Source of the DNA: a virus
Lineage: Duplodnaviria; Caudoviricetes
IMG/VR virus record: IMGVR_UViG_3300021082_000020
Coordinates: 1 to 64,000 of that record
Length of the DNA stretch: 64,000 nt
Strand: one strand, 5' to 3'
In this document: positions 1 through 64,000 of the stretch, one piece after another
How positions within the stretch are numbered: the stretch's first letter is position 1
Layout of the letters: each line of letters starts with the position of its first letter
Notes under the pieces: model-generated
The model's database searches: none
Seen by the model: only the letters and a program-made list of their open reading frames with translations
Told to the model about the DNA's origin: nothing
Made by a program: the position numbers and the translations under genes

Positions 1-652
1 GCAACGCGGCCTGTTGTCGGACCGCATTGTTCTGCGCCATCGCCTTGTCCATGCGCTCTCGCGAGTACATGGCCGCGGCTTGTGTCGTCATATGCCCCTG
101 CTGCACTGACTGCTGCAGATCAGGGGGAAGCGAGATGCCGAGGTACTCCTCGCAAAGTTTCATGTAGGGGCGCGTCCCCTCATAGAACTTCACGAAGTCA
201 CCGCGGCGCATCGCCGCCATCAGCTCAAGGCCAAACAGGAAATCGTCCTGACCGATATCGTTCTTGCGAAGATAATCGGTGACCTTGCGCGCCATATCAG
301 CGTCCGGCTCGAGCGCCTTCAGTCGCTGCACCTCGCCCGACAACTTCTGTCGTTGCGAATTGAGCTTCTTGATGCGCCGTTGCGCGGCTTTGGAAAGCTT
401 GGCTAGTTCGTCAGGTGTCGGCTCTTCCGACAATTCGGGTTCGCGTTCGGACTTCCTTGCGACTTGGGATGGCGGATCCCCCTTTGAGCCGTCGGTGTCT
501 GAGTAGTCGTCATCCTGTCGCAGCTCAGGCACTGCGCTCTGGATGGCGTCTAGAAGACTACCGCCGGTATCGCCGGCGTCCGTACCTGGCGAAGGTACCT
601 GCTCGATCGACGGCACTACCTCGGCGGGTAGTTGCTTGTCGTCATCTGCCAT
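1..652 (-). CDS. Capsid scaffolding protein, copy A (runs off window start)
   Basis: Hand translation MADDKQLPAEVVPSIEQVPSPG..., homologous to 47928..48974; directly downstream of portal. Confidence 0.75.
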   Translation of the reverse strand, partial: MADDDKQLPAEVVPSIEQVPSPGTDAGDTGGSLLDAIQSAVPELRQDDDYSDTDGSKGDPPSQVARKSEREPELSEEPTPDELAKLSKAAQRRIKKLNSQRQKLSGEVQRLKALEPDADMARKVTDYLRKNDIGQDDFLFGLELMAAMRRGDFVKFYEGTRPYMKLCEEYLGISLPPDLQQSVQQGHMTTQAAAMYSRERMDKAMAQNNAVRQQAAL

Positions 653-665
653 ACTTAATTCCCCC

Positions 666-681
666 GGTGCCGATCGGCACC
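666..681. promoter_or_regulatory. Perfect 16-bp palindrome GGTGCCGATCGGCACC just upstream of the scaffold RBS
   Basis: Identical at 48988-49003; the portal-scaffold spacer is conserved between copies. Confidence 0.5.
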
Positions 682-718
682 TTCAAGCGATCATTACGTC
701 AATTCAGGTTGTTTGTCA

Positions 719-3304
719 TCAACCCGGCATGGTCGGCATCGTCACCTGCTGCGGCATCGGATGCGGCCGAGGCGGCGGCGCGCCTGACAGTGTCTGCTGC
801 GCATCAGGCGCCGACGGTGGCGGCGCCGCCTTGGCGCCGCCATCTGGCGCGTTGACGGCACCCTGCGGCCCCATAGCCGCGCCCGGTGCAGCGCCTGCAC
901 CGGCCGCGGTTGGGCCGGCGCTGCCAGACATAGCACCGTTCATCGCAACGATACTCGGCAGCGAGGACTTGAATGCCTCGGTCAGATCGAGCCGATCGTC
1001 GAGCCGGCGCAGCGTGTCCTTGGCCAGGAACTCCGGGTCGATGCCGGGAAGTTGAATGAGCAGCGGCATCAGCCGCTGGGCGTTGGCGATCTCCTGCGCC
1101 TGGTTGGGGCGGCCCATGGAGCCCGCCTCGATCTCGAGCAGGATCTCGTTGGCGATGTCCTGGGCGACTGGCTCGGCCGGCCACACCGCGCCCTGGCCGA
1201 CGATCTTCTTCACCCGGTCCTGGCTCATCTCGCGCATCAGTATCTGGCCACCGTTGCGCGCCAGCTGCGTCAGCAGGTCGTTGAGGTCGTCGATGTTGGA
1301 CCCCATCGATGTCATGCGGCTGCCTTCGGCAATCTGTGCCTGGGTCGCCGTGGTGTTGGAAGTACCACCCAGGTTGGCTTCCTGAATACCTGTCGTCCGC
1401 AGAATGTCTTCGTAGACGGGATTGACCTCGTACAAGTTCGGATCGATGCCGGGACCGGCGTAGGGCTGCAACAGTTGCTTCACATCCTGCTGCGGCTGCA
1501 GCGCGTTGAACTCGATCACCGCATTGGCTTCGCGGTTGGTCAGCTTCTCCATGTCCTCCTCGTCCATGGAGCCCGCCACTACCGCGGTGAACGGCCGGCC
1601 GGCGATCCGCTGCTCTTTCAGGCCCTCGCGGCAGCGGTTGTACTCGAGCTGCATGTCGCGCATTAACCTGACGTCGCTCGGCGGGAACAGCTCGTTCTCA
1701 TCCTCGATGCCATTGAAGATCAAGGCGTACCAGGGATAGAACCGCTCGTTGTAGATCTCCGGCGAGGCCGGCTCTTTCAGGAACTCGCGGTAGCCATCGC
1801 ACACCACATAAACCAAACCATCGTTCCTATTGTAGATCTCCCAGACAAGCGCGTTCGGCTCGCCGCGGTTCTTGTCTTTGTCCTTGGCGCTCATCCAGTC
1901 TTCCATCGCCTTGGATGGATCGGTGTCGGTGTCGCTGCCGTATTCGGTGCAGTGACCCCTAACATCTACGCCATAGATCTCTTCGATCTCGCTGACGGAT
2001 AGCAGATACTCCTCGGCGACCCAGCCGGCGGCGACCCAGTTGCGCAGATCGATGCACTTGATGTCCGGGATGATCCGGGTCGACAACGGGAAATCAAAGG
2101 TAAGCCCTTCCCGCACCACCGCGCCGCGCGCATTGGTTAGATCCTTCAGCAACAGCCGCAGCTGCTCGGCTTCCATGTCGCTGTCGTCGGTGATGGCGTC
2201 GGTGGCGTCGGCCGCCAGGCGCTCGAGGGTGGCCAGTCGCTCGTTGGCGTCGGCGATGCCCTTCTCCAGGTCGGGCCGCAGCTGCATCACCCGCTCGAAC
2301 CCGAGCTTCACATAGGCCACGCCGTTGGTGACGGCGCGCCGCACCGACATCTTCAGCATTGATTTGAACGGATGCGGCTGGTTGTCGACCTCGTAGGCGT
2401 AGAGCAGCTCGAGTGTCCGAGCGAGCTTGTCCATCATAATGTTCTCGGCTTTGACCCGAGCCGCATCCATCATGATGTCGATGCCGGAACCGACCGCCTG
2501 GGCGACCATCGGCGAGCCCGGCGGCACCATGCCGCCGGCGGCGGCACCGGCCGCAGCCTGGCCGAGCTGGTCGCCCAGCCCCTGCGGCTGCTGCATTTCG
2601 CCAGGGATCGGACCGGCGCCCATGCCGGGCATGGTGGCGCCGCCCAGCGCGGCGCCCACCTGGCCGGAGATCTGATTGATGTCGGGCGACGGCGCCATCG
2701 CCGGGCTGGGCGGCGGACCGCCGCCGGCCATCAGCATGCCGATGTCGGGCGGCTGCCCGGTTGCCATCGGCATCATGCCCTGGATCGCGTTGCCGGCCTG
2801 ACCCATCATTCCTGGCGGCATGCCGCCGGCCATCGGCCCCATGGCGCCAGTCGCCTGCGCCTGCTGCATCATCATGGCGGCAGACTGCATCAGCTGGTTC
2901 AGGGTGGTCTGGCTCTCGTCCCAGCTGGTGGCATTGAGCCGCGGCCGTTTTCTCGCGACGGCTTTTGGATTTTTGGCGTACAGAAACGCCGTCTTTTGCG
3001 CCACCAACCTGAGGGTGAGGTTGGCGACGTAACGCTTGTCCTTGGCTTCCTTGGACCACTGCTTGCCGAAGCAGAACTCTTGATCTTCCCGCATCCGGTC
3101 GAATGAAGGTTTCCAGTACCGCTTGGCCTTCTTGACCTTGGATGTCCAGTCGCGGACCAGGTTGCGGCGGCGGTCCGGCGGATCCGGGTTGGCGCGCGGG
3201 ATCGAGTTTGGCTTGCCGGTGGTCGGATTGATATCCGGCTCGCTGGATTTCTCGTCGAAGCCGGCAAACACACGCATCATGTCGTCTTGGAAGGCGTCTA
3301 CCAT
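719..3304 (-). CDS. Portal protein with Met/Gly/Pro-rich insertion, copy A
   Basis: 861 aa between TerL and scaffold; podoviral portal-like segments (VWEIY, GIQEANLGG..TATQAQI, IEAGSMGRPN). Confidence 0.85.
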   Translation of the reverse strand: MVDAFQDDMMRVFAGFDEKSSEPDINPTTGKPNSIPRANPDPPDRRRNLVRDWTSKVKKAKRYWKPSFDRMREDQEFCFGKQWSKEAKDKRYVANLTLRLVAQKTAFLYAKNPKAVARKRPRLNATSWDESQTTLNQLMQSAAMMMQQAQATGAMGPMAGGMPPGMMGQAGNAIQGMMPMATGQPPDIGMLMAGGGPPPSPAMAPSPDINQISGQVGAALGGATMPGMGAGPIPGEMQQPQGLGDQLGQAAAGAAAGGMVPPGSPMVAQAVGSGIDIMMDAARVKAENIMMDKLARTLELLYAYEVDNQPHPFKSMLKMSVRRAVTNGVAYVKLGFERVMQLRPDLEKGIADANERLATLERLAADATDAITDDSDMEAEQLRLLLKDLTNARGAVVREGLTFDFPLSTRIIPDIKCIDLRNWVAAGWVAEEYLLSVSEIEEIYGVDVRGHCTEYGSDTDTDPSKAMEDWMSAKDKDKNRGEPNALVWEIYNRNDGLVYVVCDGYREFLKEPASPEIYNERFYPWYALIFNGIEDENELFPPSDVRLMRDMQLEYNRCREGLKEQRIAGRPFTAVVAGSMDEEDMEKLTNREANAVIEFNALQPQQDVKQLLQPYAGPGIDPNLYEVNPVYEDILRTTGIQEANLGGTSNTTATQAQIAEGSRMTSMGSNIDDLNDLLTQLARNGGQILMREMSQDRVKKIVGQGAVWPAEPVAQDIANEILLEIEAGSMGRPNQAQEIANAQRLMPLLIQLPGIDPEFLAKDTLRRLDDRLDLTEAFKSSLPSIVAMNGAMSGSAGPTAAGAGAAPGAAMGPQGAVNAPDGGAKAAPPPSAPDAQQTLSGAPPPRPHPMPQQVTMPTMPG

Positions 3305-4872
3305 CCTTGCAGGCCCCTCGCCCGAAGATCTCGACCCTCACGCCGGCGCGTGTTTGCAAACAGCTCGCGGTAGGTGCCGGTCAAGACTTCCGGCTCGACC
3401 TTCCTGCCGCGGGTTCGCCCGTGCATCTTCGACAGTCCTAGCCCAACCAGGCTCAAAGTGTCGACCACGTCGTCGTTACTGCCGTGCGGAAACTTCAGGA
3501 TTTGGTCCTGCATCTCCGACCATGAACGGATGAATCCTGGGAAGTGTACCATCTTCATGCTGGTGCGGGCCTGGATCGCCTGCGCGCGCTGCTGCTTGTC
3601 GGCCGCGGGATTGATCGGATCGATCGCACAGAACGCCTGCTTCTCGGCCATGCGCCGGCGCAGGAAGGGACCGAGGCTCTTGGTGATGGCGCCACCCTCG
3701 GCCCACCAGAACATCGGCTTATATTTCTTCATCAGCACGATCATGCTCTCGACCGCCTGATGCGAATCCAGCCGGTCCCAGACCATGTCCGGCATGATCC
3801 AGATGTTATCCTTCTCGTCGACGCCGACGATCATCAGACAGGTCTTGTCGGCGGACTTGGCTACCGACACCGCGTGGTCCGACGCCCCATAGAATCTAAG
3901 GGTATGAAACGCCGGGACGTCATCCATTTTATTGTAGGTGACCAGGTCGCTATCCTTGAAGAAGGCCCCATCCTTTGGCCCTGGACGGCCCTGATACAGC
4001 GCAGCAAATCCACGCGGATCGGTGGCACGAATATCCTCCAGATATTGCTTGGTGAACCGCTCCGGCCATAACGCTTCGCCGGGTTTGCGGCCGAGCACGT
4101 CGTTGTCTTCGGCTAGCGCCGGCAGATCAATCTTGCGCCAGGCTTTGGCTTCTTCGACGTTGTAGTACGGATTAAGCGGGTCGATAAGCCGGCCAACGAG
4201 ATCGTCTTCGGTCCACCGGGTTTGGACGATGACGATAGTGCCAGTCGAATCCATGAGGCGAGTTCGGAGGACTTGATTGTACCACTGCCACAGCTTCTCT
4301 CGAACGATGACTGAGTCAGCTTCAGTTCGATCCTTAATAGGGTCATCCAATAGGATGCAGTGGCCACCGCGGCCGGTGATCGAGGAACCGCGTCCCACAG
4401 AGAAGACCACGCCATCACGGGTGGTTTGGACTCGGTTGACAGCATTTGCTCCAACCTTGATCTCGACATCGGGGAAGACCTGCTTGTATTCTGGTGTCTC
4501 CATGATGTCGCGGACGCGACGACCCAAGTCCCAGGAGTAATGCTCATTATATGTTGCGACGATAATGCTCCTGTCGGGATGGCGACCAACGTACCAGGCG
4601 GGGAACATCGCACTTGCCAGAGTAGTCTTGCCAAATCTGGGTCCGACATTGATCATCAATCTCCGGTAGTCGCCGCGCTCGACCTCTTCAAGCGAGCGAC
4701 CGATCATGCGGTGGAACGGTTGTGGCTTGTACAGCGACTGCCCGACATCGTCATCGTAGTTGGGATCAGGCATCATCAATTCTGTAAACGCTATCAAATC
4801 ATCGCGGGCGATGAGGATTGCGCGTTTACGCTTCAGCAGTTTCCGTTGGACGTCCTTTTCAGAGTCCGTCAT
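3298..4872 (-). CDS. terL: Terminase large subunit, copy A
   Basis: Walker A GPRFGKT, Walker B ILLDD, VQTRW coupling motif, C-terminal nuclease FPHGSNDDVVD. Confidence 0.95.
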   Translation of the reverse strand: MTDSEKDVQRKLLKRKRAILIARDDLIAFTELMMPDPNYDDDVGQSLYKPQPFHRMIGRSLEEVERGDYRRLMINVGPRFGKTTLASAMFPAWYVGRHPDRSIIVATYNEHYSWDLGRRVRDIMETPEYKQVFPDVEIKVGANAVNRVQTTRDGVVFSVGRGSSITGRGGHCILLDDPIKDRTEADSVIVREKLWQWYNQVLRTRLMDSTGTIVIVQTRWTEDDLVGRLIDPLNPYYNVEEAKAWRKIDLPALAEDNDVLGRKPGEALWPERFTKQYLEDIRATDPRGFAALYQGRPGPKDGAFFKDSDLVTYNKMDDVPAFHTLRFYGASDHAVSVAKSADKTCLMIVGVDEKDNIWIMPDMVWDRLDSHQAVESMIVLMKKYKPMFWWAEGGAITKSLGPFLRRRMAEKQAFCAIDPINPAADKQQRAQAIQARTSMKMVHFPGFIRSWSEMQDQILKFPHGSNDDVVDTLSLVGLGLSKMHGRTRGRKVEPEVLTGTYRELFANTRRREGRDLRARGLQGW

Positions 4873-5086
4873 CGGTGTGCTTATACTTCGCCGCCGGCAC
4901 GTCCGGCATCTTCTTGATCGACGCCTTCGGCTTGGAGCTGATCGTGCTCGGCTCGACCGGGGTCGGCTGCGGTCCCTTCACTGGCGAGGTGTGATGCGTG
5001 AAGTTGTCCTGGGTCTTAGACACTGGCGGCGGCTTGGCCACCGGCGGCGCCTTGATGTTCACAGTCTTACCGATCTTGGATGGCAT
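4859..5086 (-). CDS. Small basic Pro/Lys-rich hypothetical protein
   Basis: 75 aa, conserved at 53208..53435, overlaps TerL start. Confidence 0.7.
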   Translation of the reverse strand: MPSKIGKTVNIKAPPVAKPPPVSKTQDNFTHHTSPVKGPQPTPVEPSTISSKPKASIKKMPDVPAAKYKHTDDGL

Positions 5087-5125
5087 GAGGTTCCCCTAGG
5101 TTGAAAATCCGAAAAAATTTTTGGG

Positions 5126-5287
5126 CTAGGTCGCGTCTTCGTCGTCGTCCTGCATCAGCACGCCGACACCGTTGACGGTGATCTGCAAGTCGACGCCGTC
5201 TGGCACGGTCAGTGCGATCTCGATCCGCGGCGTGAGCGGCTTGACGATGGGATTCTCGGGTGTGAACACATCCTGCGGCGGCTTCAT
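5126..5287 (-). CDS. Small hypothetical protein (MKPPQDVF...)
   Basis: AGGAGA RBS before ATG at 5287; conserved at 53479..53643. Confidence 0.65.
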   Translation of the reverse strand: MKPPQDVFTPENPIVKPLTPRIEIALTVPDGVDLQITVNGVGVLMQDDDEDAT

Positions 5288-5288
5288 G

Positions 5289-5465
5289 TTATCTCCTGAC
5301 TGTGCAGCGTTCCATCTGGATAAGGTTTCGCGCCAGTTGTCGGCAGGCGGTTTCGGCATTGATGGCATCGATCTCGTAGCGGGAATAAAACGGCGGTCGT
5401 TCGGTCACGGTGGTCACGATACAACCGGATAACAGGACGGCGAGCATGGCCAGGACGAGGATCAT
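5289..5465 (-). CDS. Small lipoprotein, o-spanin candidate (not in ORF track)
   Basis: Hand translation MILVLAMLAVLLSGCIVTTVTERPPFYSRYE..., 58 aa; lipobox LSGC; homologue at 53645..53827. Confidence 0.7.
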   Translation of the reverse strand: MILVLAMLAVLLSGCIVTTVTERPPFYSRYEIDAINAETACRQLARNLIQMERCTVRR

Positions 5466-5669
5466 CTAGAGCCTCATTGGTGTCACCACACCCAACAGGC
5501 CGGCGATGATGTAGACGATGATCAACACCACGATGACGGTGATCAGCACTGACACCACAGTTCTAAACTGCGGCGGCATTGGCACCATGGGCAACAGGGC
5601 TTGCACCGCCCACAGGATGACGCCGAGCACCACCAGCAGCAGGACGATCGAGATCAGCGTACCGATCAT
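5466..5669 (-). CDS. Two-TM small membrane protein, holin candidate (copy A only)
   Basis: 67 aa, two long hydrophobic helices split by PMVPMPPQFR; next to the lipoprotein. Confidence 0.6.
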   Translation of the reverse strand: MIGTLISIVLLLVVLGVILWAVQALLPMVPMPPQFRTVVSVLITVIVVLIIVYIIAGLLGVVTPMRL

Positions 5670-5678
5670 GCTAGCCCC

Positions 5679-6251
5679 CTAGCGTCGGCGCGGAATCACC
5701 TTCTGGCCGACGAATTGCGGCTCGATCATATACTTTGTTTCGTCAATGGTAATGGGGCCACCGGCACTAATCGGCGTGCCGTCCGGCACCGGCGGTGGGG
5801 CTTCACCCTCACCCTGTTCAAAGCCAATCTGATTATAGGTTGATTTGACATCATAGGCGCGGTTGAGCGCATCGGCGGCACCCATCCGCTCGACGAACAC
5901 ATTGAGCGGGCCTTGCAGTTCTGGGACAGCCGCACCGGCGGCAAAGTTGGCGACCAGGTCGGTGTCGGAGGTGAGGCTGAACGTATAAATCGGGTACATC
6001 GACGCGACCAGGCCGTTGATGTAGGTCCACTGCACGAAGTGCTTATCGACGTTTGGCGTGGCTTGCACCGTCACCGTGGCGCCGATCGGATAGACGCCGC
6101 CGCCGCTGGTCATGCCAGCGTCAGGCGGCGAGGCGATGGTTGAAAGGGTTCTGGTGGTCGCTTGCGGGTCGACAACAACGACAACCGGCGGCGGCGTTTC
6201 CGTCGCCACCGGGTGCGGCTCAAAGTCAGGATTTTTAGGCCAGTCGGTCAC
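5679..6251 (-). CDS. Putative virion protein with a divergent InlB B-repeat-like (Ig-like) domain
   Basis: ASPPDAGMTSGGGVYPIGATVTVQATPN..FVQW..YTFSLTSDTDLVANF; termini match 54004..54291. Confidence 0.65.
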   Translation of the reverse strand: MTDWPKNPDFEPHPVATETPPPVVVVVDPQATTRTLSTIASPPDAGMTSGGGVYPIGATVTVQATPNVDKHFVQWTYINGLVASMYPIYTFSLTSDTDLVANFAAGAAVPELQGPLNVFVERMGAADALNRAYDVKSTYNQIGFEQGEGEAPPPVPDGTPISAGGPITIDETKYMIEPQFVGQKVIPRRR

Positions 6252-6589
6252 TTATTCCTTCGCTCCGGGTCTTCCTCCACTGGCGGATTGGGCGCCTGCG
6301 GGTTGTCGGGCGGCTGGCCCATCGGGTCGATGCCGCTATGCTGCTTCTTGGCCAGTTCGACCGGATCGGACGTCTGACCCGGCGTGTCAGGGTGCTCCGG
6401 CTGGTCACCCGCAGTCCGCCGGTGTTGCTGTTCTTGGTGCTTGGTTGCAGTGCGGGGTTCGTCGTCGTCATCACTCGACTTCTTGGACATCTTAGATTTC
6501 CTCCGCTTTCGGGGTGTGGCCGGCTTCCTCCGCGCAGTCACCTTGCGCTTGCGCGCAACAACCGGGCGCTTTCGCTTGGCCTTCTTCAT
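6248..6589 (-). CDS. Protein with very basic N-terminus and acidic/Pro-rich C-terminus
   Basis: MKKAKRKRPVVARKRK...; conserved at 54288..54602. Confidence 0.6.
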   Translation of the reverse strand: MKKAKRKRPVVARKRKVTARRKPATPRKRRKSKMSKKSSDDDDEPRTATKHQEQQHRRTAGDQPEHPDTPGQTSDPVELAKKQHSGIDPMGQPPDNPQAPNPPVEEDPERRNK

Positions 6590-6617
6590 AACAGCACATG
6601 CTCCGTATCGTTGCAGC

Positions 6618-6830
6618 TCATTTTGCTTTTTCGCTAATGGGCTGGCAGGACTTAGCTAATTCGGCGATTAAGCTGTCGCGCCGCTCCGACGCAGATGAAA
6701 TATGGTAGAGCGTAAAAAACACCACGCCAAGGCAGACGATGTTGATGATGACGAGCGGCAACGCCAGCGGTCCCGCGGCCGCCAATCCCTTAGCAACCTC
6801 GCCCGCCACCTTGCCGGTGTACTCAATCAC
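6618..6830 (-). CDS. Single-TM membrane protein (i-spanin or holin accessory candidate)
   Basis: One TM helix plus short helical tail with Cys; conserved at 54633..54845. Confidence 0.55.
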   Translation of the reverse strand: MIEYTGKVAGEVAKGLAAAGPLALPLVIINIVCLGVVFFTLYHISSASERRDSLIAELAKSCQPISEKAK

Positions 6831-7345
6831 TTTTTCCTGGCTTCCAGCGCCTTGACGCGCTTCTCCAAAGCATCGAGCCGCTCGTCCGGCGATATATACA
6901 CCGGCAGCGGCGGCGGATCCGACAGCGTGTTGGTCTTCGGATCGTAGGTCTTGCCGCCGAAATCCTTCTGCGGATCGTCGCCGGTGTAGCCGGTAATCTC
7001 GATCACCCGCTGATTGATCGAGTGGATCGCGGTCGGATCGTAGGTGGCGGCGCCGACGATACTCCGATTGAAATGTGGGTGGTGGTAAATGTTGCAGACC
7101 ACGCTGCCAGGCTTGAAGTTCGGCACCGGCTTCGGCCTGTCATCGACCAGCAACGCGCCGGTGGTCGGGTGATAGGTCGACGGTTTCGGCGGCTGCATCA
7201 GTAGGAAGTTGGGCCGGACGTAGTCGTACCAATCAACCAGGTCGGCCTGGCGCCTGGCATAGACGGCGCCGCGCGGCGCATCCTTCTGCGGCTGCACCGG
7301 CTGGTATTTGACCCACACGCCGTGGTCGATGATTTCCATGGTCAT
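6827..7345 (-). CDS. Tail fibre assembly/chaperone-like protein
   Basis: Directly follows a tail fibre gene; DWYDY motif; C-terminal LEKRVKALE coil; conserved in copy B. Confidence 0.55.
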   Translation of the reverse strand: MTMEIIDHGVWVKYQPVQPQKDAPRGAVYARRQADLVDWYDYVRPNFLLMQPPKPSTYHPTTGALLVDDRPKPVPNFKPGSVVCNIYHHPHFNRSIVGAATYDPTAIHSINQRVIEITGYTGDDPQKDFGGKTYDPKTNTLSDPPPLPVYISPDERLDALEKRVKALEARKK

Positions 7346-8634: not shown

Positions 8635-8643
8635 CGCATCCCC

Positions 8644-54291: not shown

Positions 54292-54602
54292 TTAGCCTGC
54301 GGCTCCGATGGCGGATTGGGAGCCTGCGGGTTGTCAGGCGGCTGCCCCATCGGGTCGATGCCACCGTGCTGTTTCTTGGCCAGTTCGACCGGATCGGAGG
54401 TCTGCTCGGACTGGTCGCCCGCAGTGCGCCGCGGATCCGGGTGCTTTGTTGCAGTGCGAGGTTCGTCTTCGTTGTCGTCATCATGCGACTTCTTGGACAT
54501 CTTGGCTTTCCTCTTCTTCTTTCGGGGTGGGGCCGGCTTCTTTCGCGCAGTCACCTTGCGCTTTGGCGCAACAACCGGGCGTTTTCGCTTGGCCTTCTTC
54601 AT
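54288..54602 (-). CDS. Basic/acidic bipartite protein, copy B
   Basis: Homologue of 6248..6589. Confidence 0.6.
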   Translation of the reverse strand: MKKAKRKRPVVAPKRKVTARKKPAPPRKKKRKAKMSKKSHDDDNEDEPRTATKHPDPRRTAGDQSEQTSDPVELAKKQHGGIDPMGQPPDNPQAPNPPSEPQAK

Positions 54603-54632
54603 AACTATGCATCCTCCCTGTAGGTTGCAGCC

Positions 54633-54845
54633 TCATTTCATCCTTTCGACGATCGGCTGGCAAGACTTGGCCAATTCGGCGATCAGCGCATCACGCCGCT
54701 CCGATGCCGACGAGATGTGATAGAGCGTGAAGAACACCACGCCGAGGCAAACGATATTGATGATTACCAGCGGCAGTGCCAGCGGTCCCGCAGCCGCCAA
54801 TCCCTTGGCGATCTCGCTCGCGGCCTTGCCGGTATACTCGATCAC
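54633..54845 (-). CDS. Single-TM membrane protein, copy B
   Basis: Homologue of 6618..6830. Confidence 0.55.
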   Translation of the reverse strand: MIEYTGKAASEIAKGLAAAGPLALPLVIINIVCLGVVFFTLYHISSASERRDALIAELAKSCQPIVERMK

Positions 54846-55342
54846 TTTTTCCTGGCTTCCAGCGCCTTGATGCGCTTTTCCATAGCGTCGAGCCGCGCAC
54901 TGAGCGATGGCGGCGGCGGCGGCTGATCGCTGAACGTGCCGGTCGCGTGGTCGTAGACCTTACCACCGAAATCCTTCTGTGGGTTATCGCCAGTGTAACC
55001 GACGATCTCGATCACCCGCTGATTGATGGAATGGACAGCGGTCGGGTCGTAGGTGGCCGCGCCAACGATGCTCTGATCGCGCTGGCGGAAGATGTTGCAG
55101 ACCACGCTGCCGGGCTTGAAGTTCGGCACCGGCTTGGGCCGGTCATCGACCAGCAGCTCGCCGGTGGTCGGGTGGTAGGTCGGCGGCTTGGGCGGCTGCA
55201 TCAGCAGGAAGTTGGGCCGGACGTAGTCGTACCAATCGACGCTATCGGCCTCGCGCCTGGCGTAGATTGTCCTGGCCGGCGCATCCTTCTGCGGCTTTGC
55301 CGGCTGGTATTGGATCCACACGCCGTGGTCGATGATTTCCAT
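54842..55342 (-). CDS. Tail fibre assembly-like protein, copy B
   Basis: Homologue of 6827..7345. Confidence 0.55.
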   Translation of the reverse strand: MEIIDHGVWIQYQPAKPQKDAPARTIYARREADSVDWYDYVRPNFLLMQPPKPPTYHPTTGELLVDDRPKPVPNFKPGSVVCNIFRQRDQSIVGAATYDPTAVHSINQRVIEIVGYTGDNPQKDFGGKVYDHATGTFSDQPPPPPSLSARLDAMEKRIKALEARKK

Positions 55343-55344
55343 GG

Positions 55345-56637: not shown

Positions 56638-56639
56638 GC

Positions 56640-58661
56640 TCAGCTCCCCGGCTGCGTCGGCGGCGTGAAATTGGCCGTCCACAGTGCGCGGCCTTTGTTG
56701 ACCCGGAACTCATCGATGTAGCCGACGAACTTGTTGGCACCGTCATAATAGGCACCGACGTAGAAGTATCCGCCAGTTGACGGGATGACTTTGTCCGTTA
56801 TCGGTGTCGTCCCATCAGACACGCCGTTGATGTAGAACGTGATGCTGTTGTTACGGCAAACCACGGCGCAGTGCGTCCAGGCATTGAGTGGGATCGGCGT
56901 TGCCGTGGGATAGGCAACTTTGTTTACTGAACCTACCACAACATCAAACCGCAGCAGCCCCGCCGGGTTTATCCGCATGCTCCAACGGTCATTGTAGGTG
57001 TTGTTGGATTGATGATGCGCGGCGACAACGCCGTCGGCTGCCTGACGCGCAGACTGAAACACCCAAAAGTCTATCGTCCAATCATAGCCGTCGAGCGTCC
57101 AATCGGCGCTTGGGTAGTAGGCGATATAGCATGTGCCGTCGAACAGCGCCGAGCGGCCGCCAAACTTGCTCTGCACCGCAGACGTTCCCATCACCCCTGC
57201 AGTGGGTGTCGGGAAGATGCGCCGGTATTGCGAATTGTCTCTTATGTCTGCATCGAAATGCAGCAATAGGACCACCGGATCGGCGCCGTATTTGTACGGC
57301 GCATTCGGTGGCGTAAAGTTGGCGGTCCATAACGCCCTATCTTTGGTGATGCGTAATTCATCGATGTAGCCGTTGAATGGATAAGAAGTGCCGGCAAGCA
57401 TGCCGACGTACAGCAGCGATGACACCACCGGCAGCACCGGAGTTGTCAGTGGCGGGCCGCCGACACCATCGACGTAGATCTTATTTATCCTACCGGCCCG
57501 CACGAACGCGATGTGATGCCAAGTGTTGATTGTAAGACCGGGCGCAGCGGCGTAGACGCTGTAATCACCCCCAGCAGCCGCCTGCCGTTGCAGCATGGTC
57601 ATGTTGCCGTCACTGAGCAGCATCAGCAACCAGCCGTCGCCGGCCCAGTGCGTCGCAAGACACGCAGCTTGCCCTGCCGGCGGCCATGCCTGAATCCATA
57701 TCCACATGTCGATGGTGTAATCATCGCCGATCGACCAGTCGGCATGATCAGGGTACGTTATGTAACTGTTGGTGCCGTTGAGGTACAACCCACGCGAACC
57801 GCCGAATGGCGTCGGTGTAATGTTAGTGGTGACTGCGCCGCCTGCGGCAGTCGCTGCGCCGCGCTTGTACTGCGATGCATCGCCGAGATTGTCGAAGTGC
57901 ATCAACAGCTTTGTGTTTAGATCGGGGTCTGGCTTGTACAACACCAATGGTGATCCGGCAGAAGGCACCGAGAAGTTCGCGGTCCATCTGGCGATGCCGT
58001 TGCTGACGCGAAACTCATCGATGTGGCCGTAAAAGTAAGCGTAGCCGCCAGGATTGGGCCAGCAACCGACCATCGGGCCGTAAGTCGCATTGCTGAAAAT
58101 GCCGTTGCCGCCGACCGCCTGGGTGCCTTGCAATATGCCGTTGCGAAAGGCGTAAAACGTCGGGCCTTTGCGGACTAGTGCGCGGTGGCACCATGTATCG
58201 AACAGGCGACCGCCCATCGGCATCGAGGCGGCGAGGTTCCAGTTTGCCTGATCATTAGAGGCGTAAAAATAAGTGCCAGTGGCATCGCCCCAGCCAACCA
58301 ACATAGGCGAATACACGATACCAAGCGTATCCCAGGTGAACGAGGGACGATAAACATCCTGCGCGCCTTGCGCGTACTCCCACCAGTCAATGGTGAAGTC
58401 ACCGGAATATAGATTGAACGAGTTCTCCACGTTCACTGGCGAGTATGCATAAGCGTTAGCGGGGAACTGTGCGGACGCTTCGCCAGCGCCGCCGCCTATG
58501 CCAGTCGATGCAGGGAACGCCACATTGGAAGAAATAATCGGGCCGTTCTGTTTTGCCGAATAATCGATCGAACCGGCGGCATCGAAATGCGCGAGCCACG
58601 TCACATAGGCGTCGTTGTAGCGCGTGTCGTCGCCAGGATAATTGAAGCCCAGGCCGCTCAT
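56640..58661 (-). CDS. Triple LamG/ConA-like lectin adhesin (copy B only)
   Basis: Three repeats of L.HFD...TID.W...W.H.A.V...IDE.R...A.WTANF; ATGA overlap at 58661. Confidence 0.85.
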   Translation of the reverse strand: MSGLGFNYPGDDTRYNDAYVTWLAHFDAAGSIDYSAKQNGPIISSNVAFPASTGIGGGAGEASAQFPANAYAYSPVNVENSFNLYSGDFTIDWWEYAQGAQDVYRPSFTWDTLGIVYSPMLVGWGDATGTYFYASNDQANWNLAASMPMGGRLFDTWCHRALVRKGPTFYAFRNGILQGTQAVGGNGIFSNATYGPMVGCWPNPGGYAYFYGHIDEFRVSNGIARWTANFSVPSAGSPLVLYKPDPDLNTKLLMHFDNLGDASQYKRGAATAAGGAVTTNITPTPFGGSRGLYLNGTNSYITYPDHADWSIGDDYTIDMWIWIQAWPPAGQAACLATHWAGDGWLLMLLSDGNMTMLQRQAAAGGDYSVYAAAPGLTINTWHHIAFVRAGRINKIYVDGVGGPPLTTPVLPVVSSLLYVGMLAGTSYPFNGYIDELRITKDRALWTANFTPPNAPYKYGADPVVLLLHFDADIRDNSQYRRIFPTPTAGVMGTSAVQSKFGGRSALFDGTCYIAYYPSADWTLDGYDWTIDFWVFQSARQAADGVVAAHHQSNNTYNDRWSMRINPAGLLRFDVVVGSVNKVAYPTATPIPLNAWTHCAVVCRNNSITFYINGVSDGTTPITDKVIPSTGGYFYVGAYYDGANKFVGYIDEFRVNKGRALWTANFTPPTQPGS

Positions 58662-60367
58662 GCGATGAGGCTCCCGCACAGTATCCAAGTATCAGTATTG
58701 ATCTTCGACAACGTGCCACACGATCCCAGCTTTGGCAGCTTGCGCTTGCTGTCCTCCGAATAGATCGTAACACTGGCGGCGGGCGCTATCGTTGATGCGA
58801 ACGGTGCCGCCACCGTGAGGTCGATTTGCGCGCCAATGGGGATCGGCACGGTGGCATTTGCTGGCACCGTAATGGTCGAGCCTATTTGTATCACCAGCAA
58901 TTTGCCTGCGTCTGACAACACCAGCGTATAGGTTGGCGTAGCTATGTTATTGATTGGCCGCACACCGGCATCGACGTACTGCTTGGTGGCGGCACCAAGC
59001 GCCTGCGTTGGATCGCGGCGCAGATACATTTCCCCAGTAGCACGATCAAGTTGAAGTGCATTTGCCGCCCCAGATACGCCGTCGTCGTCGTAGCGCACCA
59101 ATGTCAAACTAGATCCAGCGTTGCCGCCGCTTTCGGCATCGCCACCCAATCGCCACAGCCAGCGCCGCTTGCCGTTACGGTTAAATCGGACATCAGCAGT
59201 ATTGCCGCCGAGAACATCATTAAGGATCAACAGCGGCGCTGTTTTATCAATTGTCAGATCGCCGGTCATCGTGTCGCCAGCCCTGGCGACAGCATAAGAC
59301 TTGGTGGCAACGCTGTTTGGCTGCGTCGGAGCTTGTGCGACGAGAACCTGTCCGCTTGCTCGATCTATCGTGAGCGGGGTGCCAAGCACAACGCCGTTGT
59401 TGTCGGCGCGGGTGATTGTAAAATTACAGCCGACATTGCCTGGACCTTCAGGAATGCCGTCACCTAAATTTATCGTCCAGCGCGTCTGGTAGTCTGACCA
59501 ATCGATCTTTGTGCCGACACCGCCTTCGATGGAGCAGGGTACGTTGGCCCCCGGCGGGCTTAGCATGCTGAAGTACGGCGCAGGCGCGATAACATTCACA
59601 CCTCCTTTGAAAAAAGACGAGCCGTCGCTGCCGATGCGCAGGCGCTCGGTGCCGTAGCTTGTTGAGCCGGTCTTGAAACACAGCGCCAACGGAACGCCCG
59701 CCCCCGCAACAGCATCGCCATCAACCGCAGCAAATATAGCGACAGACGTTTGGTAAGCTGATCCGTCGAAACCAGTGAACGCTATGCCACCAATCTCGCA
59801 ACCGGGTGTCAGCGCTAGCGGTGCCGCCGCTGTTCCCTGCGCGTATTGGAAATACAGACCTTCGGAGTAGAGATCGTCGTTGAAGTGATCGAATTGTCCG
59901 TAGGTCTGGTTGCCACCATAGTGACCGAGGATAAATCCCTGCGTGCCACCACCACCCGGCGGCGTCACATAAACAAAGCCGTCACTGCGATAAGAAAACG
60001 ATCCGGCGATGATGTCGATGCCAAGCGGCCCAGTCAGCGTGCCGCCGGTCAGCGGCAGATAATCGCCGCCGCCGCCGCCGGCGCCGCTGAACTCGGTCCA
60101 CTGCGCGGCGTTGAACGGGCCGGGCGGCACCGCGGCGATCGCCACGTAAAGCTTGCCGGTTTCGACCACCATGTCATTGGCGAGATAGCTGGCCCGCGGG
60201 TCGAAATAGCGGATCGCAATCAACGGCAGCGGTGTGCCGACGCCGACAACGTTGGCGTCGCCGACCGCGAGCTGCCGATTGGCGGTGTTGACCGAAAGCT
60301 CGCCCGGCTCGAGCGTCGGAAACGGATTAGCCGGGTTGGCGCTGCGCCTGTGGCGGTACTGTTTCAT
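58658..60367 (-). CDS. Tail fibre/adaptor protein, copy B variant
   Basis: N-terminus matches 12811..13677; longer shaft; C-terminal YTLVLSDAGK..TITVP..K..TDTW..G.L domain. Confidence 0.8.
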   Translation of the reverse strand: MKQYRHRRSANPANPFPTLEPGELSVNTANRQLAVGDANVVGVGTPLPLIAIRYFDPRASYLANDMVVETGKLYVAIAAVPPGPFNAAQWTEFSGAGGGGGDYLPLTGGTLTGPLGIDIIAGSFSYRSDGFVYVTPPGGGGTQGFILGHYGGNQTYGQFDHFNDDLYSEGLYFQYAQGTAAAPLALTPGCEIGGIAFTGFDGSAYQTSVAIFAAVDGDAVAGAGVPLALCFKTGSTSYGTERLRIGSDGSSFFKGGVNVIAPAPYFSMLSPPGANVPCSIEGGVGTKIDWSDYQTRWTINLGDGIPEGPGNVGCNFTITRADNNGVVLGTPLTIDRASGQVLVAQAPTQPNSVATKSYAVARAGDTMTGDLTIDKTAPLLILNDVLGGNTADVRFNRNGKRRWLWRLGGDAESGGNAGSSLTLVRYDDDGVSGAANALQLDRATGEMYLRRDPTQALGAATKQYVDAGVRPINNIATPTYTLVLSDAGKLLVIQIGSTITVPANATVPIPIGAQIDLTVAAPFASTIAPAASVTIYSEDSKRKLPKLGSCGTLSKINTDTWILCGSLIA

Positions 60368-60413
60368 TCATGACCCCCTCCTCAAGTCAGGGCCTGGTAA
60401 AACCTGGCAGTTT

Positions 60414-60806
60414 TTAGCGACGCCGGCCGCGGCTGGCCGCCGGATCGGTAAAAGTGAAATCGATCGTGTTGCTGCGAAGCCCGCCAGTGCGAACGCCGAC
60501 CGGACAAGCCGCCGGCACCGCAAACAGGCTCGGTTTGACGTTGGTGCGCACTTGCGTGTCGCTGAGCAGCGCCGTCGGCTCGTCGTTGCCGTTGAAAGTG
60601 ATGATAGTCGCGTTGTTGAAGCCGGTGCCGTCGACAATGAGCTGCAAATCGGCATCGCCGCAGGCGGCGGTGTCGGGATTGAGACCGTCGACCGTTGGCG
60701 TCTCCATTTGTGCAATCACCGGCACGCTATCGGATCCGCCAACATTCAATTTGGCCGGTCCGGTAATGGTCATGACCTGCGTGTCGTCGATATGATAGAT
60801 CGTCAT
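60414..60806 (-). CDS. IPT/TIG domain protein, copy B
   Basis: Homologue of 13719..14111; AGGAGA RBS. Confidence 0.75.
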   Translation of the reverse strand: MTIYHIDDTQVMTITGPAKLNVGGSDSVPVIAQMETPTVDGLNPDTAACGDADLQLIVDGTGFNNATIITFNGNDEPTALLSDTQVRTNVKPSLFAVPAACPVGVRTGGLRSNTIDFTFTDPAASRGRRR

Positions 60807-60820
60807 TTGCTCAATCTCCT

Positions 60821-61051
60821 CTAAAACGTGCCGCCGTCGAGCTGCACCCAATAACCGTCGATTCTGACATAAGCCTCGCCGTCGATCGGCGCTTCGCCGA
60901 TCCCACCGCCGCCGCCGCCACCGGAAACGACCGAAAACGCCGATGGGATGCGTTTGTTGGCGCTGGACGGGCCGATGTTGTTGATGACATTGCCGCCGCC
61001 GACCGGATTGGCGGTCGGCATCCACAATGCGACGCGCAAATTCTGGCTCAT
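60821..61051 (-). CDS. Small foldon-motif protein, copy B
   Basis: GIGEAPIDGEAYVRIDGYWVQL. Confidence 0.75.
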   Translation of the reverse strand: MSQNLRVALWMPTANPVGGGNVINNIGPSSANKRIPSAFSVVSGGGGGGGIGEAPIDGEAYVRIDGYWVQLDGGTF

Positions 61052-62460
61052 GGCGGTAGCACCACAGGAATATGCGGGCGAAACCAAACCGCCCAAAGCC
61101 GGCTGTCCGCCGGCGGGGCCGCGCTCATGGTCAGGATGTCGCCGGCCGCGGTGAAGTCGACCACCGGCTCTTGGATGATCCCATCCAGACTGACTTGCAA
61201 CTGCGCGCCAGTGCCGACATTGACCGCAACCGCCGGCGGGCCGGTGGTCGGGTCGATGTAGGTCATGGTGAACGCGGTTTTAACGCCGTCGGGAATGAGC
61301 GGCTGCAGTTTGAAACAATCGACCTTGGCGGAATTGATCTGATCGGGCGGAATCATCAGATCCCACTGCACGATCGCGCCGGCACCAGGCGCCTCAACCA
61401 AAGTCATAGCGTCGGTGGTGGCATTGACGGTGTAGTCGACCGTCGGCACCAGGCGGACGCCGTTTAGGTAAACGTCATGGCCTTCATTGGTGAACAGCGG
61501 CGCCAAACCGTTGCTATCAATGCCGCTGAAGGTCACCTGGCCGGCGGTCGCTACGTAAACGTAGCGAGCTCGGAAACCTGGCGCGACAGTGACGCCCGGC
61601 GTCTGCCAGGTCTCGCCATTCCAGATCATCACCGAGTTTTTGGTGGTATCGTAGTAGAAACTGCCGATCGCAAGCGGATTGGGAACGCTTTCGCCGGTGT
61701 TAGGATTGGTGCTGCCGGGCAGCGGCGGCTCAGCCCACGGGCCGAGGTAATAAAAACTGAAATTGCCGACCAATTGCTGGCAATAAACCGCCCACCACTT
61801 GGCCGACCACAAACCGCCGACGCCGCCCATGCCGGAAACCGGCTGATAGAACAGTCCCTGCGGGAATTTCGAGGCGTTGATGAAATCCAGCGCGTGGCTG
61901 TTGTCGACAACTGGCCCGCCGAGGTATTCGGCCCAAGCCAGCGCCTCATCTTTGGCGGCAATGGCGTTGTCGGACTGAGCGTGTGAATAATTAGCGGAAT
62001 TTTCCGACTGAATCGCCGCGGATTCGGCACGGTCGGCGGAATTTTCCGCGTCAGAGGCACTATCCAGCGCGTTGACGTTGCCGTGGCTAATCGCCGTGAG
62101 CATTTGTGCCGCGGAAATGGCCGCGGCTTCGGCATCTTGGGCGCGCAAATCGGTTTCGCGGCCGCTTTGCACCACGATGCTGATCGCATCGGCGGTTTTA
62201 TCAGCGGCGGCGACGACACGCTGCTCGATATTTTCGACTTCGCTGCGGATATGCTTGAGATCGAAGCTCAACTGCTCCTGGCTGATGCTGTTGTTGACTA
62301 TTTTGCCGTCGTCGCGGCGGACATCAGCGAGAGCTTGCTGGGTGGACGCGATCGCTTCGATCAAATTGTGGATCTGCGCATCCAAGAGATCCGCGGTAAT
62401 CTGGCCGCGCGGACGGTCGGAGAACAAAATTTGCTGCTTGGGCCGGACGATCGCTGGCAT
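61048..62460 (-). CDS. Tail fibre anchor/proximal protein, copy B
   Basis: 470 aa, colinear with 14339..15751. Confidence 0.7.
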   Translation of the reverse strand: MPAIVRPKQQILFSDRPRGQITADLLDAQIHNLIEAIASTQQALADVRRDDGKIVNNSISQEQLSFDLKHIRSEVENIEQRVVAAADKTADAISIVVQSGRETDLRAQDAEAAAISAAQMLTAISHGNVNALDSASDAENSADRAESAAIQSENSANYSHAQSDNAIAAKDEALAWAEYLGGPVVDNSHALDFINASKFPQGLFYQPVSGMGGVGGLWSAKWWAVYCQQLVGNFSFYYLGPWAEPPLPGSTNPNTGESVPNPLAIGSFYYDTTKNSVMIWNGETWQTPGVTVAPGFRARYVYVATAGQVTFSGIDSNGLAPLFTNEGHDVYLNGVRLVPTVDYTVNATTDAMTLVEAPGAGAIVQWDLMIPPDQINSAKVDCFKLQPLIPDGVKTAFTMTYIDPTTGPPAVAVNVGTGAQLQVSLDGIIQEPVVDFTAAGDILTMSAAPPADSRLWAVWFRPHIPVVLPP

Positions 62461-62520
62461 TTAAGCGTTTCCATCGTGCGGACGCCCATTTATCGCACAA
62501 AACCACGGAAAGGAAAGAAC

Positions 62521-63084
62521 ATGATCTCAGCCGAAGCGTTAGCCGCCCTGTCCGGCATCGAAAACGGCGCGCACTACAACGCGCTGCACACAACCGCACG
62601 CGAGTTGATCGCCGCCGGCTACGCTTGCGACAACTGGGGGCAGCTCGATTTAACCGAGGCCGGGCGGATCTATCTGCGGCGCGGGCAGTTTAGGATTGCC
62701 ATCACATCCGACGAGCAGGTCTGCGATTTGTCGGTACACATGATGGACGTGCCGAAGGTGCCGATCGATCGTCGACCGTCGAAGTTCTGGAAGAACCATG
62801 CCGCGGTCGACCTCGAGCAGCCACACCGCAGTCGCGGCGATTACGACACGATCGATCCAATGACGGCGCCGCACCGTGCGCGCAAAGCGGCCGAGCCGCT
62901 CGAGCTGGTCCCGGAAGCGCCGTCGCTTCCGCCGGTGCCGGCAGCAGAGCGACTGCCGGTGGCCGAGAGCCAACTGCAAAAGATGATGCGGGCTGCCGGC
63001 GTGGCGTCGGGCAAGACCGGCGTGTGGGTCAAAGACGAGTGGGTGGAGGAGTTCATCCGCGCGCTCGAGGGCGAAGACGAATAA
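62521..63084 (+). CDS. Conserved hypothetical protein, copy B
   Basis: Homologue of 15815..16345; AAGGA RBS. Confidence 0.7.
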   Translation: MISAEALAALSGIENGAHYNALHTTARELIAAGYACDNWGQLDLTEAGRIYLRRGQFRIAITSDEQVCDLSVHMMDVPKVPIDRRPSKFWKNHAAVDLEQPHRSRGDYDTIDPMTAPHRARKAAEPLELVPEAPSLPPVPAAERLPVAESQLQKMMRAAGVASGKTGVWVKDEWVEEFIRALEGEDE

Positions 63085-63423
63085 GGGTGGCACAGACAGG
63101 GTATTTTTAGGAGCAGATCCACCCTTCAGAAATACCCTGTCGCGTGTGCGGTACGGCGCGTGTGGCACACAGACACGCTTCAATTCACGAAAAATTTGCC
63201 ACGCAGCATTGCGGCTGCCGGCGCCCAGCCGACTCGGCCCCGCCAGGGGGCGGTACGATGCTAAGCTATTGATAACACTACGCTTTTCACGATGAATAGG
63301 CTCGATCGCCGCGGCCGCGCATGGTAGCATCTGTTTTGTAAACAGATGGTATAGGCCAGGTAACCCATTGATTTTGCTACGTTTGACCAGCTGCTTTGGG
63401 CGGGCTGGGATGCGTCTGGGATG

Positions 63424-63684
63424 CTATTTGCCCCATTCGGCGATCGCATTATCAAGCTCGGCCGCTGTCATGTCAGCGCCGCGGCGCCGCGCTAAGTCAT
63501 TGGTTTCGTTATCAAAATACTGCAAAAGCGTCCGGCCAGCGCTGGCTTTTGCTGCAGCGCTAGCTTCCTGGTCTTTAAGCACGTTTAGCAGGGCTTCCTT
63601 AACGATCGATCGTAGAGAGGCTTGCGCCTTTGAATCTGTCACGGGCGTTTCGGCTATTGCGATTAAACGCGGTTTTACCGGCAT
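63424..63684 (-). CDS. TerS candidate, copy B
   Basis: Homologue of 16594..16851. Confidence 0.45.
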   Translation of the reverse strand: MPVKPRLIAIAETPVTDSKAQASLRSIVKEALLNVLKDQEASAAAKASAGRTLLQYFDNETNDLARRRGADMTAAELDNAIAEWGK

Positions 63685-63931
63685 TGCGCTTTGCCTCTCT
63701 GATTCGCTTCGACGCTTGCATCATGTTGCCACCATGCCAGCGACAACACGGAACGCCCCGCATCGCTAGCTGGCCACACGGGCGCCCGCTATGGCGCGCG
63801 ATCGCCACACACCGCATGCGATTCGCATAATTCGGCTGTATGGCGTGCTTTGCCATGGCCGCTCGCCATGCCGCGTTGCCCGATTGTGGGCGCCGTTTAT
63901 TTTTCAAATTATTTGAATTTAGCACTTGCAT
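63599..63931 (-). CDS. HGGxSTG-like protein, copy B
   Basis: Homologue of 16742..17104. Confidence 0.7.
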   Translation of the reverse strand: MQVLNSNNLKNKRRPQSGNAAWRAAMAKHAIQPNYANRMRCVAIARHSGRPCGQLAMRGVPCCRWHGGNMMQASKRIREAKRNAGKTAFNRNSRNARDRFKGASLSTIDR

Positions 63932-63953
63932 TATGTCCCGATCGGGATATGTT
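63926..63953 (+). promoter_or_regulatory. Early promoter/operator, copy B
   Basis: Identical to 17099-17126; downstream leader differs. Confidence 0.6.
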
Positions 63954-64000
63954 GCGCATACCGGATTTGGTCCGGCGCCAACGTAACAGAAACGGACATG

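Follow-up and report, generated by a model that had tools for sequence, protein, structure and literature searches.

The window analysed here (64,000 nucleotides) is the first part of the 94,958-bp IMG/VR contig IMGVR_UViG_3300021082_000020, which IMG/VR lists as linear rather than as a provirus, and which consists of phage sequence from its first base to its last. As written, the contig comprises two collinear, intact genomes, A (1–48316) and B (48317–94958), and its start and its end fall within one and the same gene. Self-BLAST aligned 1–5457 with 48317–53813 (88.2% identity), 6229–8634 with 54269–56637 (78.7%), 13341–16288 with 60016–63027 (74.2%) and 16352–17128 with 63181–63955 (76.4%), reproducing the coordinates of the original prediction, in which position 1 recurs at 48317 and the gene order repeats through 63955. 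Collinearity reaches the final contig base (46734–47968 with 93726–94958). Over the whole contig, A could be aligned to B over 76% of its length at 81.3% identity with both genomes intact; the repeat is, as had been proposed, neither an exact terminal redundancy nor a decayed duplicate. The A unit measures 48,316 bp as written, in agreement with the predicted 48.3 kb, and the period of B is 46,990 bp; the A/B boundary, however, does not lie at 48316/48317 but within 47847–48026. The segment 47969–48316 is present only once, leaving the record 348 bp short of two full units.

Both genomes carry a portal gene (A, 719–3304, minus strand, matching phrog_156 and phrog_12082; B, 49041–51653) and a terminase large subunit gene (TerL; A, 3298–4872, minus strand, phrog_38, E = 4e-98; B, 51647–53224). 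The replication module of A (20028–30059) includes a primase (20028–22501, minus strand), a DUF2800/PD-(D/E)XK exonuclease, a nucleotidyltransferase, a family A DNA polymerase (25022–27226), a PAPS-reductase-like gene found only in A (27648–28379) and a helicase (28647–30059). Three large genes on the minus strand (33555–40308; matches to phrog_7 and PF00959) encode products of 1018, 699 and 533 aa, the first with a lysozyme domain. Judged by size and position, these three would be internal virion or ejection proteins of the podovirus type. The tail-fibre and adhesin cassette specific to A (8635–13340, minus strand) is replaced in B by a tail-fibre cassette with ORFs of 682 and 569 aa (56638–60015, minus strand). 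The predicted gene set, which includes a polymerase, a primase and a helicase of the phage's own and lacks a recombinase, corresponds to a virulent phage. Profile scans of all six frames of the whole contig (E ≤ 1, with positive controls found in 11–14 control genomes) detected no tyrosine recombinase (PF00589), serine recombinase (PF00239) or rve DDE transposase (PF00665), and searches of some 50 proteins against PHROGs or Pfam likewise gave no recombinase hit. The contig contains no tRNAs, no host DNA at its flanks and no att-type junction, the join sitting in an intact 348-aa ORF that is uninterrupted in relatives. These results bear out the earlier reading, in which no recombinase, att-like junction or bacterial gene was recognised in the 48.3-kb unit.

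Purifying selection on both copies, also claimed from the sequence, is evident in the A versus B comparison: over 9,287 concatenated codons, dN is 0.12 and dS is 0.65 (ratio 0.19), and dN/dS is 0.067 for TerL (96.6% amino acid identity) and 0.076 for the portal protein (92.8%). Genes that were unpaired in rough gene calls proved to be intact in B by tblastn, such as a methyltransferase gene at 77523–76936 (196/196 aa, 90%).

The 348-aa ORF that bears the join (47928–48974, minus strand) is flanked by the portal gene on one side and by the gene in the major capsid position on the other. It has no PHROG or Pfam match, but its position suggests a scaffold protein, and full-length matches were found at 41 related loci. 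In the contig this ORF is a chimera across the A/B switch, yet it is full length and collinear with its relatives. The switch is confined to a run of exact identity of 122–180 bp at 47847–48026, and this run covers the capsid-position gene at its 3′ end together with the adjoining end of the scaffold gene. Of this run, 47847–47968 is proven to be common to A and B by its repetition at 94837–94958, and over 47969–48026 the contig still agrees fully with true A as seen in the public run X1. Phage A accordingly occupies 1–47846, linearised in the scaffold gene and without the roughly 290 bp of its own that would correspond to 48027–48316, whereas phage B extends from 48027 to the end of the window at 64000 and on to contig base 94836, closed by the 122-bp repeat at 94837–94958. 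The original prediction had pointed to 17.1–48.3 kb for a switch point, and it was found just inside that range, at 47.85–48.03 kb.

A contig of run X1 (record 8; 1,886 bp, depth 18.8) is identical to our contig over 46510–48026 and departs from it at 48027, with 22 substitutions and 6 indels in 48027–48153 and a further 117 letters that could not be aligned. From 48304 on the two align again, and at 48348 the X1 contig has a C, the A allele of position 32. On either side of the switch the genomes differ at 47846 (G in A, A in B) and at 48027 (A in the B-type sequence of our contig, G in true A). The departure at 48027, a base at which a contig of run X10 also diverges, places the A-to-B switch within 47847–48026, and the return with the A allele indicates, from this one contig and its single diagnostic site (48348), that A closes on itself. 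Contig segment 47969–48316 is only 80–84% identical to every other strain, whereas the true-A letters of run X1 match those of a third strain, C, at 19 of 23 sites; since X1 agrees with strain C and the contig does not, this segment belongs to the other lineage, B.

Further public data point in the same direction. Over 38317–48026, Logan contigs from X1 and X2 agree with the record to within 0–1 differences, and in X1, X2 and X18 kilobase-sized contigs tile the A half with 0–1 differences and leave the B half nearly uncovered, although such contig data show presence and not absence. A query composed half of A and half of B was contained to at most 0.54 in any of 24 runs from 20 studies. Together, this ceiling and the near-lack of B in X1, X2 and X18 are suggestive of separate A and B genomes. 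In exact scans of IMG/VR, a B-specific 46-mer to the left of the switch had no match, and the corresponding A-specific 46-mer matched only contigs of strain C, whose identity to A and to B alike is about 88%; these 46-mer scans thus yielded no independent contig containing A or B only.

Both ends of the contig lie at exactly shared stretches. At the start, an exact run of 127 bases (1–127) is common to five loci (L006, L007, L008, L044 and L123), with divergence of the strain C contigs from base 128 onwards, and four strain C contigs from other samples (L032, L033, L045 and L046) begin at the very first base of our contig. Bases 1–127 would mark a vertex of a de Bruijn graph with k = 127 and no genome end. 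A physical genome end at position 1 was considered, as contigs from three further assemblies start there, and was rejected because the identity extends over exactly 127 bases, contigs on the opposite side stop at variable positions (48406, 48428, 48545 and 48733) and other contigs read through. At the 3′ end, the final 122 bases repeat an internal stretch (47847–47968 and 94837–94958), making 47847–94958 a self-overlapping 46,990-bp unit that closes B. This run is the longest of the 95 exact A/B runs of at least 31 bp in the record, and the chance of the contig end landing in it is about 0.003. A strict k = 127 model predicts 127 shared bases here, 5 bp more than observed, and the last 127-mer of the contig has no match among the sampled loci, strain C sharing just 74 bases of it, so that the 3′ end was rejected as a k = 127 vertex common to a sampled strain. 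Metagenomes assembled at JGI with metaSPAdes use -k 33,55,77,99,127 (PMC6646334), and two complete relatives (G001 and G003) are closed by exact 127-bp overlaps. The assembler behind the contig and its k value are inferred. MEGAHIT with k = 123, for which a 122-bp overlap would equal k-1 in the JGI k-list (PMC6646334), was rejected since the contig start fits k = 127 exactly; for MEGAHIT, the authors of COBRA report an end overlap of maxK and not of maxK-1 (PMC10914622).

At 46–48 kb, complete relatives are as long as a single unit. Two of them (47,048 and 47,747 bp) are closed by 127-bp overlaps and are rated 100% complete by CheckV, further ones measure 47,410, 46,612, 46,109, 46,005 and 45,895 bp, and each relative carries one scaffold gene. 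No double-length relative was found among about 120 loci, and strain C contigs run collinearly through the capsid-position gene, scaffold, portal and TerL across what appears in our contig as the junction. Another record of the same phage group (G005, 54.7 kb) also overshoots one unit into a diverged copy. Only two GenBank phages show detectable nucleotide similarity, which lies in portal and TerL (65–70% identity over 7–17% of an 8-kb query): Microcystis phage Mae-Yong1326-1 (OP028995, 48,822 bp) and Rhizobium phage RHph_N65 (MN988536, 48,682 bp). Both have the genome size of one contig unit. A and B belong to an uncultivated group from soil, rhizosphere and sediment that is known only from metagenomes.

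Taking these findings together, we conclude that the 95-kb record is very probably an assembly chimera of two virulent podovirus-like phages rather than a biological tandem. The original prediction had offered two readings, an assembler that walked round one phage and switched into a co-occurring relative, or a real tandem; the end signatures, the closure of A and the single-unit relatives speak for the former, and the latter found no specific support. We propose the following hypothetical sequence of events, in which (i) A (about 48.3 kb) and B (46,990 bp) would have co-occurred in one metagenome, probably together with strain C as at least one further strain; (ii) the exact 122–180 bp shared by A and B (47847–48026) would form, in a de Bruijn graph with k = 127, a single edge bearing two loops, a figure of eight; (iii) the assembler path would have begun at the A/C branch vertex (bases 1–127) and gone once round A; (iv) it would then have entered the shared edge, exited on the B branch and gone once round B; and (v) it would have halted on meeting the shared edge again. 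B is likewise probably circular in reality, as its 122-bp self-overlap suggests. Against a chimera it can be held that a figure-of-eight graph fits one A-S-B-S circle equally well, that the shared run of at most 180 bp could be spanned by ordinary read pairs and a paired-end-aware assembler still went from A to B, that the 3′ end shares 122 rather than 127 bases, and that the closure of A is seen in one X1 contig with one diagnostic site, while that of B is suggested by a 122-bp overlap.

The alternative that fares best is a real heterodimeric replicative concatemer or cointegrate, in which recombination within the 122–180 bp run joined replicating A and B genomes during a mixed infection. The switch lies in perfect identity, where homologous recombination would act, and G005 likewise passes from one unit into a diverged copy. 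The strains are also mosaic, A being identical or nearly identical to strain C around the scaffold gene and about 88% identical elsewhere, which indicates that recombination between co-infecting relatives does occur. However, intermediates of this kind would be far outnumbered by A-A and B-B junctions and would not prevail in an assembly. Moreover, each end of the contig lies at a graph-type position, A closes on itself in run X1, and a molecule of 95 kb would be too long for packaging if complete genomes measure 46–48 kb. We therefore consider this explanation improbable, and slightly more so the specific case that the contig is a real A-B cointegrate, whether a circular heterodimer or a mixed concatemer, formed by homologous recombination in the identical run within a cell co-infected by two phage species and abundant enough to be assembled. 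If true, it would be a snapshot of an intermediate in module exchange among these phages. The replicative concatemers of T7, lambda and P22 resemble the contig in that their units are arranged head to tail and no recombinase gene is required. In contrast to the contig, in which the copies differ by 19% and whole cassettes are replaced, their units are identical, and they are joined at packaging termini. The join in the contig lies in the scaffold-position gene, between the portal and capsid-position genes; a packaging terminus (cos, pac or terminal repeat) would be unlikely there, and contigs of relatives read through it.

Two related prophages or episomes in tandem in one cell, as a double lysogen or a plasmid-like heterodimer, are very improbable. 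Related phage genomes occur in direct repeat in tandem lambda double lysogens and in CTXphi-RS1 arrays, and the head-to-tail order of the contig and a small HTH gene and putative Cro-like features in the early region would fit such an arrangement. Yet such arrays require either an integrase or a recombinase site of the host, together with hybrid att junctions and flanking host DNA, and the contig has none of these: the six frames of its 95 kb are free of tyrosine and serine recombinases and rve transposases, host DNA and tRNAs are absent, the join lies in an intact structural gene without an att site, and the virulent-phage gene set with its own replication machinery and the IMG/VR class (linear, no provirus) argue in the same way. 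Least credible of all is a genuine genome of about 95 kb that arose by whole-genome duplication and subsequent divergence, which would account for two intact copies under purifying selection but not for a dS of 0.65 with every gene kept twice, the lack of any double-length relative among the roughly 120 loci, the finding of A alone and joined to its own start, or a record 348 bp short of two units and cut within a gene.

An assembly chimera of this kind has known counterparts. The authors of CheckV consider that IMG/VR contigs in which a genome is repeated are probably artefacts of assembly (PMC8116208), and our record resembles them as an IMG/VR contig of about twice the expected length in which genome copies follow one another head to tail. 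Their cases, however, contain the same genome repeatedly, with a k-mer frequency above 1, whereas two different genomes are present here. According to the authors of COBRA, strain variation breaks contigs and links them at end overlaps of maxK (PMC10914622). The contig likewise ends at shared stretches of about maxK (127 at the start, 122 at the end), and related contigs of other samples break at the same spot. Such inter-strain breakpoints usually cause fragmentation, whereas in this case the path joined two complete genomes.

As most likely a by-product of assembling mixed related strains, the tandem most likely carries no biological weight. For curation it matters, since the record is counted as one 95-kb virus with a CheckV completeness of 100% although two genomes are inside. 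The k-mer test for concatenated genomes misses it (21-mer frequency 1.03) because the copies are just about 81% identical. Diverged double records of this type inflate genome-size distributions, distort viral-species clustering and may create false gene neighbourhoods. Because both genomes are real, the use of the contig as a built-in comparison of which modules swap, already foreseen in the original prediction, remains valid. It offers a clean picture of module exchange in an uncultivated podophage group of soil and sediment, the exchanged modules being the tail-fibre cassette, small early genes, the PAPS-reductase-like gene and domains of the ejection proteins.

The window covers the first two thirds of one IMG/VR record of 94,958 bp, classed as 'linear' with a CheckV completeness of 100, in which two related phage genomes, A and B, stand head to tail. 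The gene-order repeat described in the original prediction is confirmed by self-comparison: 1-5457 recurs at 48317-53813 with 88% identity, and the order repeats as far as 63955 within the window. In the full record, A and B remain collinear up to the final base (46734-47968 corresponding to 93726-94958). Unit A spans 1-48316 and unit B 48317-94958; B ends 348 bp before completing a second full turn, and 47969-48316 is therefore single-copy. Over the whole record, the two units are 81.3% identical across the aligned 76% of A. As had been claimed, both copies are intact and evolve under purifying selection, with dN/dS values of 0.067 for TerL and 0.076 for the portal gene, a dN of 0.12 and a dS of 0.65 over 9,287 concatenated codons, and genes left unpaired by crude gene calls being full length in B (tblastn).

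Each unit is the complete genome of a virulent, podovirus-like phage. In A, packaging and head functions are represented by the portal (719-3304) and TerL (3298-4872), and virion genes by the tail-fibre genes at 7342-15751. A capsid-position gene (46793-47911) and a 348-aa scaffold-position ORF (47928-48974, minus strand) are named from gene order only, neither having a PHROG or Pfam match. Size and position suggest internal virion proteins for the three large genes at 33555-40308, of which the first encodes a lysozyme domain. The replication genes at 20028-30059 encode a primase, a DUF2800/PD-(D/E)XK exonuclease, a family A DNA polymerase and a helicase; a DNA methyltransferase is also encoded. 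The predicted lack of recombinase and host DNA is upheld by six-frame scans of all 95 kb, in which no tyrosine recombinase, serine recombinase or rve transposase was found while positive controls worked, and the record contains neither tRNA genes nor host DNA.

One unit is also one genome in the relatives. The only GenBank phages with nucleotide similarity measure 48.7-48.8 kb, and the long members among about 120 related IMG/VR loci measure 45.9-47.7 kb, with no double-length relative among them. Two relatives of 47,048 and 47,747 bp are 100% complete, carry one scaffold gene each and close through exact end overlaps of 127 bp, a length equal to the maximum k that JGI sets for metaSPAdes (-k 33,55,77,99,127; PMC6646334); terminal repeats of k-mer length have been ascribed to assemblers (CheckV, PMC8116208). 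Contigs of a third related strain, C, are collinear across 45996-53800 (capsid-position gene, scaffold, portal and TerL), and the A/B junction near 48 kb is ordinary genome interior. Within 48295-48733, 8 of 41 related contigs break, which marks a recurrent break point at the border between a variable part of the scaffold gene and conserved sequence common to co-occurring strains; strain-induced breakpoints of this kind, with maxK end overlaps, were described by the COBRA authors (PMC10914622). The middle of the scaffold gene (48027-48303) is hypervariable among strains, includes CTG/GCT-rich stretches and lies between conserved flanks. At 48027-48303 and in bases 1-127, A and strain C are nearly identical, against only about 88% identity elsewhere, a pattern that indicates recent recombination between the lineages.

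The scaffold ORF contains both ends of the record. Bases 1-127 match strain C exactly and divergence sets in at base 128, strain C being otherwise about 88% identical to A and to B; contigs L032, L033, L045 and L046, all of strain C and from other samples, start at the record's base 1. The pattern agrees with a k=127 de Bruijn graph, in which two variants that separate at base 128 are each expected to give an edge beginning with the last 127-mer they have in common. At the other end, the last 122 bases (94837-94958) equal 47847-47968, the longest exact A/B run among the 95 that reach 31 bp or more; the chance of the record end falling inside this run is about 0.003. This terminal overlap is 5 bases below the strict k=127 prediction suggested by the record start, and the last 127-mer (94832-94958) is common to no sampled strain. 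As 47847-94958 overlaps itself with a period of 46,990 bp, the 122-bp overlap by itself suggests that B closes on itself.

For A, closure was observed in one contig of a public sequencing run. A 10-kb query composed half of A and half of B matched 24 runs from 20 studies, with a share of words of 0.41-0.54 and none higher. Four runs from different studies (X1, freshwater sediment, 2018; X2, soil, 2025; X10; X18, sediment, 2020) were aligned to 38317-58316 as Logan contigs. In X1, X2 and X18, the A half is tiled by kilobase contigs at depths of 5-19; those of X1 and X2 show 0-1 differences from A, those of X18 slightly more, and the B half is almost without cover, although in contig data such absence is only suggestive. 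X1 record 8 (1,886 bp, depth 18.8) is identical to 46510-48026, differs by 22 substitutions and 6 indels over 48027-48153, continues with 117 unalignable letters and re-aligns from 48304. Its C at 48348 is the allele found at position 32 of A, the B allele being T. The contig thus passes through its own version of the stretch into the start of A, and A closes on itself. An X10 contig departs from the record at the same base, 48027. Since the X1 letters match strain C at 19 of 23 sites and the record's 47969-48316 is just 80-84% identical to every other strain, the single-copy stretch belongs to the B lineage. The switch from A to B, which had been expected between 17.1 and 48.3 kb, is confined to the exact run 47847-48026, at most 180 bp long and comprising the end of the capsid-position gene and the adjoining end of the scaffold gene. 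The sites on either side of this run distinguish the genomes: 47846 is G in A and A in B, and 48027 is G in true A and A in the B-type sequence of the record. Phage A itself recurs with 0-1 differences over about 10 kb (38317-48026) in X1 and X2 and, slightly variant, in X18, which may reflect a single clone of very wide distribution, connected sampling campaigns or cross-contamination.

The simplest account, which we consider very probable, is that the record is an assembly chimera of A and B arising from a figure-of-eight graph, in which (i) an A loop and a B loop would hang on one shared edge, 47847-48026; (ii) the assembler path would begin at the A/C branch vertex, circle A and take the shared edge into B; and (iii) the path would circle B and halt on meeting the shared edge again. 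Formally, the same graph equally fits a single A-S-B-S circle, which would be a real cointegrate that arose when homologous recombination joined two co-infecting phages. However, A is observed joined to its own start, both record ends lie at graph positions, a 95-kb molecule is not packageable by a phage with complete relatives of 46-48 kb, and such intermediates are expected to be rare compared with monomer junctions. To the extent that sequence can tell, a tandem prophage array is ruled out by the lack of recombinase, att junction and host flank, and a duplicated 95-kb genome is contradicted by the independent existence of A and the lack of any double-length relative. The assembler switch, offered in the original prediction as the mundane option, is thus supported by the A closure and the record ends, and the tandem is judged not to be real biology.

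The record matters for curation rather than as a biological tandem. IMG/VR contigs more than twice the expected length with the same genome repeated were found by k-mer frequency and regarded as probable assembly artefacts (CheckV, PMC8116208). In contrast, the present record is a heterologous version whose copies are about 81% identical; with a 21-mer frequency of 1.03 the k-mer test is blind to it, and it passes as 100% complete. G005 (IMGVR_UViG_3300018083_000035, L114-L116; 54,722 bp), a relative from the same phage group, likewise extends beyond one unit into a diverged copy of its own start: 1-6928 repeats at 49630-54722 with 71-85% identity. The exact run at its end is just 7 bp long, and the contig is probably another assembly chimera of two strains.

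The A/B pair can be used to compare exchangeable modules, as the differences are cassette replacements. These concern the tail fibres (A 8635-13340 versus B 56638-60015), small early genes and parts of the large virion genes at 33555-40308. A PAPS-reductase-like gene (27648-28379, plus strand; phrog_424, E 8e-39) belongs to an A-only segment (27653-28655) together with a 95-aa ORF also confined to A, where B has an unrelated 486-bp segment (74609-75094). A GP88 family protein (PF17338, E 2e-24; 318/319 aa) is encoded on the plus strand at 16858-17814 in A and 63850-64809 in B; only its N-terminal 90 or so residues are conserved, the remainder being replaced, and its third-position GC of 0.53 is unusually low against 0.7-0.85 in neighbouring genes. 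A protein of 190 aa at 5679-6251 (minus strand) carries a divergent InlB B-repeat domain (PF18998); its B counterpart has just 95 aa (54004-54291). The gene-poor region at 17129-19011 (64905-65444 in B), which separates leftward structural from rightward early genes, is a candidate origin, promoter region or site of the true genome ends. An imperfect palindrome lies in it at 17812-17863 (81% over 52 bp), and an element of about 70-100 bp (17808-17908) is present twice in B, at 64905-65004 and 65370-65444.
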